Virus record (IMG/VR): IMGVR_UViG_3300025000_000111
Location: 1 to 59,719 of that record
Strand: one strand, 5' to 3'
From: a virus
Taxonomy: Duplodnaviria > Caudoviricetes
DNA length: 59,719 bases
In this document: one piece after another, positions 36,001 to 39,000 of the stretch
Layout of the letters: the number at the start of each line of letters is the position of its first letter
How positions within the stretch are numbered: the first letter of the stretch is position 1
Program-made: the position numbers

Positions 36001-39000
36001 TTAGCCTGTTTACCGATAAACTCTTCAATCAGGTCAAGTCCCTGTGCATCTGAGTTATAGTTAAACTTCTGTTTGAACTGTTTCTCAACGTCTGTCATGG
36101 TTTCAGCAGTGCCTTTCTTATAGCCATTGTTAAAACCTGTTCCATCCGCTTCTTTCCTGATACGTCTTACACGGTCAGCATCCTGTGATAGTAAGGCATC
36201 TAAAGCATCACTCTTTAGTTCCCCCGTCTGATCGTAAATGAGTTGCTCTAACTCTTGGTCTGTTTTCACCAACGCTTTCGTCAAAACTCCGAATAACAAA
36301 TCCTTTTCCTTCATCTCGTTTTTCTATTTTTTTAGCTTTAATAATTATTTCATTGACATTAACTTTTTCCTCTTCCCAGATTCTACCATGTCCCATCTGT
36401 TTCAGTTCCTGCCACTTATCGTCACTTAGGCTGACGCTTTCTCCGGTCTGTTTGTTTCTTAACTGGATCACTTTTAATTGGTTTAGGTTTAACAATTCTC
36501 TCAGGGTGTTCAATTGGTTTAACCTCTTTGTATTCAGCCAACTCAAACGGAACTACCTTCACCGCTTTAATCTCAATCGGTTCATCAGGTTCTGTAAGAC
36601 TTTTCCAGTCTTTACCCATAGTCTTGGATAAGTGTTCAATCATCTGTGCTGAGAACTTAACTATCCTACCATCTTTTCTATTTATGTATCTACCCTCTTT
36701 CATTTACGCTTTTGTTTACGTTGAAAAATTCATATTCTCTAATCTGGATATAGTTGTTATACTTCTCCAAACTTCTGTGGTATGACGCCATTATAATATC
36801 AACAGCCAAATCATCTTCTTCCATTCCGAAATTCTTCTGGAACATCATTGCTACTTCCTGTAACTTGATGGTGGTGATACAATCCCTTACGCCTGTAAAA
36901 TAGGCAAAAATATAATCGTCAAGTTTATCCTGACGGAAAATATCTGGGTACGAATAAAACAACTTCTTTCTCTTAGCCATTATTCCATAGTTTAATTACT
37001 TCATTATTAAATTTCTCCTTTTGTTCCCGTGTCAAAAAGTGTTTATCTTTTGGTCTTCTCTGGTTTAATGTATGTGATAGTAAGTGAGTTACAAAACTGT
37101 TACATACTATACCGTGTTTTATATTTTCTCTTTTAAGTTGTTCTGCATAAATGTTATCTGAATACCAGAACGATACAGCCTCATTTAACTTACCAATACT
37201 GTTCAGTGTTTCTCTTGTCAGGCATATACACCATCCGGCTAATTCGTGTTCTGTTCTGTAACCTGTGTGTATCTTTGAATCCATTTGAAACATATTCTTG
37301 TGATGTCTTATACAGTATGGAGAAAGGCTACCAACACCGTAACTAAATCCGATTATAATCCCAGCCTGCCAGTCTTTATGAAAGATGAGATCATTATTAG
37401 CCAGACATATGAATTCAGCATTCGACTCTTGAAGACCATAGTTTAGGCATTTGTTATAATTGAAATCAAAATCATAATGCAAAGTTAAGGTATTTTCGTA
37501 ATTTACCGTTTCTTGTTTTTCAACCACTATAATCTTCTGCTCAACAGCATCTAACTTATTAAGCAGTAATGATTTAACACACTCTTCCGTAACCGTTTTA
37601 TTACTGTTGTTATAGGCATCGCTAACTATGATAATATCAAATGTCATACCTAAAAATAGATAATCTATGATTATTAAAAAATAATGAATAAAAAACTTGA
37701 CAATGGTTAAATATTGTTGTACATTTGTATAACGTTTTGCGTGTATACCCAGTTGGGGATTATTTAGTAGTAACTTGATTAAAAGCAATACAGATGAATA
37801 ACTTACAAAACAATCAAAAAAGCGATGCGCCCCCAATTGGGTATGACACGCTGTTACCAGCAGTTTTTGTTGGTCAAATTTTATTCCGAGAAATTAATAC
37901 TCGTTATGAAAAAGCAATTACTGAACATACCGTAACTAAAATTGGTAAAAAATATTTTGAATGCTCTGATTTGAGAGATAAGATTACTATCTCAAATTTA
38001 AAACATGAAGATAATGTTTACTCTCAAAGGAACTATCAAATGTATCGCTCAAAACAAGAAATATTAGATAAAAACGAAATGAATAGTTTATTCCAAAAGA
38101 TTAAACAATCATTTAGCGACTACAACCACAATGGAAATTTCACAATAGAACAACTTCGCAATATTGCGGATATTGTCGGGTGTCGTTAAAATGGCTTATA
38201 ACGGTTCTCGGCTAAACTGCGTTGCCGTATAAAATGCAGTTCACTTTCAAAAATACGACAAACATGGAAAATAGCAATGACGTTCAAAATCCAACTAATG
38301 TAGGCAATGAAGTTTTAGCCGATGTTAGTTGCCGTACTTTCATTGATTTTTTAAGAAAAAACGGATATGAAATTAAAAAGGCAAACCCAAGACATAGACC
38401 AGGAGAAGGTTACTCACCAGCACCATATTACGGTGATGTAAATATTGATAGTGCCATAGAACATTTTGTCAAGCAGTATGGCAACTAACGTGCCGAGTGT
38501 AAACGTCAGTAAATTAAAATTATAGCACAAATGACAAAAGAAGAGTTAGCAAAGTGGCTTCACGATAATTATGAAGCTGTTGCAAAAGAACAAGATTGGA
38601 ATACACAACAAAGTTGTAAGGTAGAATTTGACACTTTGCCTAATGCTAATAAACACACAATGATTGAGATAGCAAATAGGCTTCTTAATTTTAATTTATT
38701 GCGTTTACACTTTGTTGTAGGGCGAAGCGAACAGTATTGCGAACACGCAGTAACTGACCAAAAAACACTGAGATGTACTTGCTGCGAAGAATGTGGCGAA
38801 ATACTCGATGTGCTTGATTGAGCAATATTGCCTACAACATATCGCTATACGCAAGTTGAATATTTTAAACCAGCACAAATGACTGATACAGAATTAAATA
38901 TACTAATATTAATTGAGGAATCAGTATATAAAGGATTACTGTCAATTGATTTCTGGGTTGAAAATATTAAACTCATTGAATGTTATTCTGGTATAAAAAC

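Follow-up and report, generated by a model that had tools for sequence, protein, structure and literature searches.

A short array of putative mobile gene cassettes in a Caudoviricetes contig and its relation to an integron-like site family of Bacteroidota and their phages

The viral contig IMGVR_UViG_3300025000_000111 (Caudoviricetes; estimated completeness 64%), whose 59,719 bases are here termed the window, carries between positions 37727 and 38855 an array of three hairpins that alternate with small genes and that an earlier note, made from the sequence alone, had described as integron-like cassettes with folded recombination sites. The array region lies within a small plus-strand islet of four genes flanked by minus-strand glycosyltransferase genes and, being inserted between these, the islet interrupts a sugar-modification cluster. 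The glycosyltransferase genes around it (PF00535; phrog_22332, phrog_8858) occupy positions 36973-37647, 39103-39585 and 39896-40546, all on the minus strand. The features of the array and of its immediate surroundings are the following.

37696-37727 (+): promoter-like element, CTTG-N20-TACATTTG, read from the sequence, immediately 5' of site 1.
37730-37856 (+): site 1; TAACG, a bulge of 4 nucleotides (nt), a stem of about 20 bp with one bulged G, a loop and TGTTA; TAAC at 37730-37733, GTTA at 37853-37856.
37794-38189 (+): gene 1, 131 residues; Pfam PF24203 (1.5e-11), phrog_3032.
38199-38327 (+): site 2; TAAC at 38199-38202, GTTA at 38324-38327; loop with ATG at 38234 or 38264 and 21-30 codons.
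38264-38488 (+): gene 2, 74 residues from 38264 or 84 residues from 38234; from an open reading frame (ORF) scan.
38324-38338 (+): start of cassette 2, GTTA-N6-GT..., complementary to 38475-38489.
38475-38489 (+): end of cassette 2, ..AT-N6-TAAC, complementary to 38324-38338.
38486-38717 (+): site 3, long; TAAC at 38486-38489, GTTG at 38714-38717; loop encoding a conserved N-terminal domain of 60 residues.
38531-38821 (+): gene 3, 96 residues, with a Cys-rich tail past GTT; from the ORF scan.
38831-38838 (+): closing half-site CCTACAAC, with CAAC at 38835; complementary to GTTGTAGG at 38714-38721; no hairpin after it.
38879-39106 (+): gene 4, 75 residues, just outside the array; no known family; a slot held by a recombinase in other phages.

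The promoter-like element at 37696-37727 is one that we take to resemble the -33/-7 promoter consensus of the Bacteroidota. The loop of site 1 contains the start codon of gene 1 (ATG 37794), and the phage ProQ C-terminal-like domain of its product comprises residues 24-128, starting directly after GTTA. The stop codon of gene 2 is the TAA of the TAAC of site 3, and gene 3, for which no Pfam or phrog family scores above threshold, has a tail that is common to locus L008 only. The ORFs at 37794-38189, 38234/38264-38488 and 38531-38821 all start within hairpin loops, and their frames continue through GTT. The claim of the earlier note that every ORF starts inside a hairpin loop holds therefore for the window, but not for its relatives, in which many sites are purely intergenic, the previous stop codon being the TAA of TAAC and the next ATG lying 30-60 nt past GTT. 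A blastn search of positions 36900-39700 against 50,697 phage records gave no match, and Rfam models reached no gathering score anywhere in the window; at E <=10, Rfam returned only chance-level matches of microRNA and small nucleolar RNA type in loci L001, L016, L008 and L023.

The positions and sequences of three hairpins with the same geometry (37730-37856, 38199-38327 and 38486-38717) were confirmed, as was the left-arm-only CAAC site at 38835, within CCTACAAC, that closes the array. Folded as RNA, sites 1 and 3 reach -40.6 kcal/mol (z -5.63) and -61.0 kcal/mol (z -3.59), respectively, and none of 200 shuffles of either was as good. When every AAC...GTT pair of the window was scored by the duplex energy of its arms (threshold -14 kcal or better), the plus strand gave 71 candidates and the minus strand 92, and sites 1-3 are the best three on the plus strand (-36.6, -26.2 and -25.2, the next being -22.1), with a common spacing. 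Each of the three stems has a bulged base in its fold, as the earlier note had it with one extrahelical base per stem, and the bulged arm is not constant. The asymmetry that had been described as a spacer of 5 versus 1 nt is real, but is better read as a TAACG/TGTTA helix with a G.T pair, followed by a 4-nt bulge. No promoter or stem-loop sequence is shared by sites 1-3, which have the cores and the geometry alone in common. The top candidate on the minus strand is a strong AAC...GTT hairpin inside a long ORF (23353-23171, -25.5 kcal), the spacing of which differs from that of sites 1-3.

A further property of the array is the complementarity between the start of a cassette and its own end. 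In cassette 2, positions 38324-38338 are complementary to 38475-38489 over 15 nt (93%), and in cassette 3 GTTGTAGG (38714-38721) pairs with the closing half-site at 38831-38838 at 8/8 positions, in agreement with the earlier claim that the DNA after each GTT is complementary to the DNA before the next AAC. For a uniform score, positions 5-15 after GTTR (11 positions) were compared with the bases before the next YAAC; cassette 2 then scores 11/11 (10 Watson-Crick pairs and one G.T). Among phages, a score of at least 9/11 was found in 21 of 41 adjacent site pairs, as against 125 of 3286 non-adjacent pairs (3.8%), and in bacteria it was found in 212 of 300 adjacent pairs, as against 711 of 20000 random pairs (3.6%). 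A match of 7-15 nt across bodies of up to 1.4 kb would make a poor RNA stem; it is expected if the circularised body completes a long basal helix, which is a typical cassette signature.

The three sites belong to a larger family. Across 13 phage-derived sequences, 55 distinct sites conform to one consensus, AAT-K-N5-YAAC-G ... TWTA-N-MCG-N-T-GTTR-N6-GTT. The phage sites were picked by a filter on stem energy and motif, with YAAC and GTTR demanded by the scan, and the features independent of that filter are a G after AAC in 52/55 sites and a T before GTT in 53/55. The internal loop is one-sided, with 4 nt on its 5' side and 0 on its 3' side. RNAalifold applied to an alignment of 22 sites (105-135 nt) predicts 18 pairs, 16 of them with compensatory changes; when the basal TAACG/TGTTA helix is added, 91.2% of the cells are paired, compared with 68.5% in shuffles (0/500 reach the observed value) and with 31-47% when the partners are slid, and two-sided changes are seen at 17 of 23 pairs. 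Because the sites were chosen by stem energy, these pairing statistics describe unrelated sequences with one architecture and are no independent proof of folding. A relative of site 1, found in L004, has one compensatory pair.

Fixed G.T (G.U) columns, for which the filter does not select, comprise the AACG/TGTT junction (19/22 sites) and two stem positions (14/22 and 21/22), and a fourth fixed G.T is found at position 11 of the cassette-end helix, in 22 of 26 phage pairs with a score of 8/11 or more and in 209 of 212 bacterial pairs. In the phage sites scanned, 69 G.T or T.G pairs stand against 2 C.A and no A.C single mismatches; one strand is therefore made for folding, unlike its complement.

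The loci of relatives, searched with a hairpin finder, contain same-strand arrays with the same site geometry and with one to about six ORFs per cassette. In whole phage genomes these arrays form local islands, at about 10.0-12.2 kb in the complete 103-kb genome G002 and at 25.5-29.7 kb in G004, and in P12002L, a virulent Polaribacter phage that has been isolated, the early-gene strand contains 11 sites in the interval from 30.0 to 41.0 kb.

Having obtained a consensus, we searched chromosomes with a pattern derived from it, covering 596 billion bases with about 6 matches expected by chance according to our own estimate. At least 120 stretches match the pattern, nearly all of them from Bacteroidota; the matches listed include Polaribacter, Psychroserpens, Winogradskyella, Tenacibaculum, Flavobacterium, Bacteroidales and Saprospiraceae, together with a small number of Ignavibacteria and Chlorobiota and with three odd bins. 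The latter (L114, L122 and L125, assigned to Oceanicaulis, an archaeon and Desulfobacterales) are short contigs with 1-2 sites each, and may represent either mis-binned contigs or real spread beyond the Bacteroidota. At least two same-strand sites are present in 99 of the 120 matches listed, with up to 11 in 8 kb. The consensus is shared by 260 sites outside the search pattern, of which 195 are 120-129 nt long. Hence, the system is not specific to phages, as had been proposed, for the same sites form arrays throughout the Bacteroidota and many phages carry a recombinase themselves.

The bacterial arrays adjoin a dedicated tyrosine recombinase, and so the host enzymes linked to the same sites whose existence the earlier note had raised were indeed encountered. 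In five genomes with arrays, the best matches to TIGR02249 (integron integrase) lie in open frames of 387-589 residues and reach 96-119 bits per stretch, where the cut-off is 265, with model positions 180-238 skipped. This best integron-integrase-like gene adjoins the array in three of the five genomes and lies at a contig end in the other two. In G005, at least 55 sites, spread over 50 kb, come immediately after a recombinase gene of 376 residues; in G007, the recombinase gene has 14 sites leading up to it, and in G009 eight sites come after it. The G005 enzyme has NF040815 (XerA / integron integrase) as its best profile, at 223 bits for a cut-off of 220; it aligns to the solved IntI4 structure (2a3v) in two separate stretches and has an N-terminal extension of about 105 residues. 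This extension is present in bacterial array recombinases (L164, 7422-8552) and absent from phage versions (L202, 5968-6783). Of 61 genomes sampled from the same family, 12 encode full-length relatives of the recombinase (at least 57% identity), and at nine of these 12 loci the 1.5-kb flank includes a site, the side and strand of which are those expected. As judged from these profile matches, the array-linked enzyme is a Xer-like tyrosine recombinase that lacks the integron-integrase segment.

Relatives of the recombinase core (41-49% identity) are also common in IMG/VR, and the two that were translated have 266 and 271 residues, with no N-terminal extension. Sites are carried by 52 of the 80 recombinase-bearing viral loci that were kept, and in 49 of these 52 they lie on the strand of the recombinase gene and directly upstream of it. 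L202 exemplifies this layout, with eight sites alternating with ORFs of 51-116 residues, compliance with the cassette rule throughout and the 271-residue recombinase as the next gene; this enzyme belongs to the family profile of the bacterial one, with 47% identity to its core, and the genes next to it have matches among phage HNH and QueC-like families. In 15 of 17 recombinase-bearing phage arrays, a closing YAAC complementary to the start of the last cassette is found just upstream of the recombinase gene. After the closing YAAC, 35-45 nt before the recombinase start codon, stands a conserved TA-rich motif (roughly TA-N-TATATATAA), seen in L202 (5905-5967), L234 (5908-5967) and 13 further viral loci, which is a candidate for the primary insertion site; positions 38839-38855 of the window bear only a weak likeness to it. 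Three contigs classed as viral (L201, L203 and L204) show the bacterial layout, with sites on the opposite strand and downstream of the recombinase, and may be host fragments or prophage borders.

The window array ends like the recombinase-bearing ones, in CCTACAAC, but the gene that comes next is the 75-residue gene of no known family. The earlier note had reported no tyrosine recombinase on this contig, and the PF00589 search likewise found none in the window, which represents a genome 64% complete. In addition, tblastn of two phage and one bacterial recombinases against 15 array-bearing phage sequences, G004 among them, produced no match at E 0.01. Since the contig has sites and cassettes and no recombinase, movement in the window would need an enzyme in trans, and it is plausible that the recombinase for this array is so supplied.

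The orientation of genes with respect to the folded strand sets phages and bacteria apart. In bacterial arrays of at least four sites, the ORFs lie opposite the wobble-bearing strand in 47 of 49 cases (171,207 versus 22,905 ORF nucleotides), an arrangement that coincides with that of attC arrays (genes opposite the folded strand, site 3'), whereas in all seven phage arrays, the window included, the order is reversed and the ORFs are on the wobble-bearing, folded strand. As the genes of 47/49 bacterial arrays have the wobble-bearing strand for their antisense strand, the conserved fold is not an mRNA structure in bacteria, and it is best read as a structure of single-stranded DNA, like the attC bottom strand. 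In phages, the folded strand is the sense strand and the site is 5' of its own gene, which explains why the ORFs of the window start inside loops and why TAAC can provide the stop codon of the previous gene. An additional role of the phage hairpins as RNA is possible. Two short contigs from bacterial assemblies contain homologues of the methyltransferases of phage cassettes (identity up to 49%), L083 at 809-1399 (+) and L144 at 3799-3194 (-); both genes have the phage-type orientation, on the folded strand after the hairpin, and the contigs may be phage DNA in bacterial assemblies.

Comparison among loci reveals modularity at two depths. In protein searches of IMG/VR, homology ends at GTT: for protein 2, seven loci match over residues 1-21, 1-26 or 1-31 only, and for protein 3, two loci match over residues 1-62 or 1-63. 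DNA alignments show site 2 to be more than 90% identical in eight viral contigs with unrelated flanks on both sides, and the 21-residue head of gene 2 is fused in frame to five different bodies elsewhere. Site 3 is kept in five loci, with homology ending at AAC and GTT and three kinds of body after it. A wastewater contig matches positions 37852-38203 alone, that is, body 1 from T|GTTA, with another hairpin arm before it, and wastewater and compost contigs match only 38493-38735 and 38486-38735, respectively, corresponding to site 3 plus 19 nt. Window parts uncovered by X5, X7 and X12 carry no evidence. Contigs of a second groundwater sample (X3) break at 37771-37797, 38177-38188 and 38501-38529, inside or next to sites, a pattern that recurrence of the sites in several contexts of that sample would produce.

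More recent events can be followed in the Polaribacter phages P12002L and P12002S, the backbones of which are 99.6% identical and which differ by whole cassettes: an insertion and a replacement, of about 1.1 kb and about 2 kb, respectively, and one additional methyltransferase cassette. At three of the four junctions, 4-6 nt are shared and the crossover falls within TAAC-GT, at what is the hairpin's 5' side when the gene strand is read. Since these recent crossovers fall on the AAC side, the hairpin moves with its downstream gene, head and body together. The gain and loss of cassettes at cores that had been anticipated for related phages was thus observed, along with replacement, but with recent breakpoints at AAC in three of four junctions, and at GTT in the deeper comparisons only. 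The same holds for the suggestion that re-ordering creates chimeras of N- and C-terminal parts, which is borne out by the GTT breaks of the deeper comparisons and not by the P12002L/S events, in which the head stays with its body. GTT-side breaks in those deeper comparisons need older events or use of the other strand. Different cassettes occupy the same place in the two phages (L032, P12002L, 37266-39212; L033, P12002S, 36676-39032), one phage having a Mom-like gene and a DNA methyltransferase and the other two small genes and two methyltransferases, and the extra methyltransferase cassette of P12002S is bordered by two copies of one hairpin.

Taken together, the sequence comparisons indicate that the region is probably a short array of three mobile cassettes bounded by recombination sites of folded single-stranded DNA, part of an integron-like system widespread in the Bacteroidota. 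The core of the earlier interpretation, integron-like cassettes with folded sites, is retained in this reading, with corrections as to phage specificity, breakpoints, loop starts and the spacer. The window array is a member of such a system, and departs from the classical integron in recombinase and in gene orientation. Each site is made up of a YAACG/TGTTR helix and of a stem of about 20 bp that carries near-invariant G.T wobbles, with a 4-nt bulge between the two, and in the cassette circle the first and last bases would add to the site a cassette-specific helix of 12-15 bp. Arrays end at a conserved half-site, next to a Xer-like recombinase in chromosomes and in many phages; in the mechanism that we propose, this recombinase, acting on these sites, would cut the folded strand at the 5' AAC, leading to excision, insertion and reshuffling of cassettes. 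For the window, the enzyme could come from the host, from a co-infecting phage or from the unsequenced 36% of the genome. Cassette genes lie on the folded strand in phages and on the opposite strand in bacteria.

Several observations weigh against this interpretation. No recombinase is found in the window, in the complete 103-kb G002 or in the complete P12002L, and an all-versus-all blastp of the ORFs of the window, G002, G004 and P12002L retrieved no protein common to all four. No recombination has been observed, and the assembled contigs, which list no joints, circles or indels, are uninformative on excision. The fold of site 2 (-31.2 kcal/mol, z -1.60, with 14 of 200 shuffles as good) is unexceptional by energy alone, the complementarity rule is obeyed weakly by cassette 1 (8/11), and 20 of the 41 adjacent phage pairs score below 9/11. 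The percentage of paired cells, part of the covariation and the comparison of energies between top and bottom strands (47/55) are partly circular through the filter. Finally, the fourth P12002L/S junction is located some 10 nt further in, within TGTAT of the stem and not at AAC, and the breakpoints on both sides of sites 2 and 3 misfit a single crossover point per site.

Four other explanations were considered. That the hairpins are mRNA elements only (an open-loop start codon, transcript stability or processing), their boundaries reflecting ordinary phage mosaicism under selection, is in agreement with a phage fold on the sense strand, with G.U pairs that are stable in RNA, with start codons in A-rich loops and with a promoter-like box right before site 1 of the window. 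We nevertheless deem it quite improbable, given that in those 47 of 49 bacterial arrays the genes have this wobble-bearing strand as antisense, that the complementarity across whole gene bodies is weak as an RNA stem and typical of cassettes, that a recombinase gene terminates the arrays, and that the crossovers occur in a few shared bases of the AAC core; a DNA role and an added RNA role of the hairpins are, in any case, compatible. Very improbable, in our estimation, is an ordinary cluster of attC sites lacking integron integrases (CALIN), with canonical attC sites moved by a host IntI. The YAAC/GTTR cores, the hairpin, the same-orientation arrays and the cassette-specific R-box complementarity would all fit, and the available text of Qi et al. 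(2023; PMC9892861) reports recombination of one P12002L site by IntI1. Yet the TIGR02249 matches of the five host genomes stay below cut-off and skip positions 180-238, the G005 enzyme has its best score as XerA type and a split IntI4 alignment, and a one-sided 4-nt bulge, an R box of 12-15 bp with a fixed G.T and phage genes on the folded strand are not what such sites would predict.

The remaining two explanations are both ones that we regard as having very little probability. Regulatory cassettes akin to the promoter early stem-loops (PeSLs) of T4-type phages, which would shuffle their neighbours by homologous recombination, might account for elements between small accessory genes in a plastic region and for near-identical copies of sites 2 and 3 in unrelated contexts. 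The sites within one array differ in sequence, however, sharing cores and geometry only, the crossovers map to cores of 4-6 nt, the cassette ends are complementary and a site-specific recombinase is linked. In a similar vein, selfish hairpin repeats of the MITE type (small transposable elements bearing inverted repeats) or the REP type (repetitive extragenic palindromes), inserting between genes with no role in their movement, would explain many copies per genome of a uniform length of about 125 nt with terminal inverted repeats, but not the lack of target-site duplications, nor flanks that pair with the far end of the neighbouring gene rather than with each other. Arrays in one orientation that start at the recombinase gene, and P12002L/S genes that come and go with the sites, also speak for the cassette interpretation over such repeats.

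For site-specific gene capture, integrons serve as the textbook case, and the Bacteroidota are, to our knowledge, usually regarded as nearly free of them. The present data indicate a system parallel to integrons, whose sites have a grammar of their own and whose recombinase is simpler; it abounds in marine and environmental Bacteroidota and is common to their phages. We tentatively put forward a broader joint reading, for which, as a whole, we would claim a little less than even chances. According to it, Bacteroidota and their phages might share an analogue of integrons that evolved without the extra domain of IntI, possibly employing a small Xer-like recombinase whose choice of strand would be set by three or four invariant G.T wobbles instead of by extrahelical bases. 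Phage cassettes would be inverted, with the site perhaps doubling as 5' leader and first codons; whole-gene exchange (AAC cut) could be accompanied by rarer in-frame swaps of heads and bodies (GTT cut, other strand); and arrays devoid of a recombinase could make use of the infected cell's enzyme and exchange cassettes, methyltransferases included, with host arrays and other phages.

In phages, such a system would group small early or accessory genes, such as the DNA methyltransferases of the Polaribacter phages, into exchangeable units, and it would make a recombination site simultaneously part of a coding sequence. The fixed G.T pairs provide a testable rule for strand choice by the recombinase. 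For annotation, the site family explains recurring structured spacers of 50-130 nt (up to about 230 nt) in phage genomes. Standard integron tools appear to miss most of these sites, as far as can be gathered from a single comparison, that of the two sites in the available text of Qi et al. (PMC9892861) with the 11 found here in P12002L. The window array is itself small, with three cassettes of presumed mobility.

Among known systems, integrons offer the closest likeness, in an imperfect hairpin with inverse YAAC/GTTR cores at its base, the asymmetry on one folded strand, the one-direction arrays, the complementarity of a cassette start to its own far core and the half-site beside a tyrosine recombinase. 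A canonical attC site has a two-sided unpaired central spacer between its R and L boxes, and extrahelical bases mark the strand that is recombined. Here, by contrast, the linked recombinase is without the IntI-specific segment, the bulge is one-sided and of 4 nt, the R box extends over 12-15 bp, three or four fixed G.T wobbles provide the strand asymmetry that extrahelical bases confer on attC, and the phage genes are on the folded strand with the site 5' of the gene and possibly coding. The window, with three sites, a closing half-site and no integrase nearby, fits the definition of a CALIN only if its sites are counted as attC-like. Qi et al. (2023), in the available text, screened 10,705 phage genomes with IntegronFinder and HattCI and found 17 attC clusters without integrase (PMC9892861). 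The same text describes two attC sites in P12002L and the recombination of one by IntI1, at G|TT and on the bottom strand only (PMC9892861).

A second relevant precedent is the rAID-1 clusters that Ross et al. (2019), according to the available text, identified in 226 of 423 Bacteroidales genomes (bioRxiv 10.1101/471110). In these, small genes that run in one direction have a XerD-family recombinase on their 5' side, and the intergenic sequences are repetitive and described there as 'reminiscent of integrons' (10.1101/471110). The bacterial arrays G005 and G007 match this layout. An array of rAID-1 type is further defined by a recombinase with at least 44% identity to that of B. fragilis rAID-1, by a GC content of no more than 41% and by orphan immunity genes. 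The window, with no recombinase, departs from the rAID-1 layout, as do the phages that possess the enzyme, in which the recombinase is 3' of the array. The rAID-1 clusters pertain to gut Bacteroidales chromosomes and immunity genes, and the text available describes no folded site and no phage copies (10.1101/471110). In the literature searched, which included few subscription journals, we found no paper on the site grammar, on arrays in Flavobacteriaceae, on phage arrays equipped with a recombinase of their own or on inverted gene orientation in phages, and none on the site family in phages of Flavobacteriia or on a link between phage sites and a Xer-like recombinase; the attC coordinates in the supplements of Qi et al. 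and the repeat motif in the figures of Ross et al. may affect this assessment of novelty. A last parallel can be drawn with the PeSLs of T4-type phages, which are likewise structured intergenic elements bounding modules in plastic regions (PMC2839356, PMC4122927). As far as the available texts describe them, PeSLs have conserved sequences and act through homologous recombination (PMC2839356, PMC4122927), whereas in the arrays described here only the cores and the geometry are kept and a site-specific recombinase is linked to the sites.

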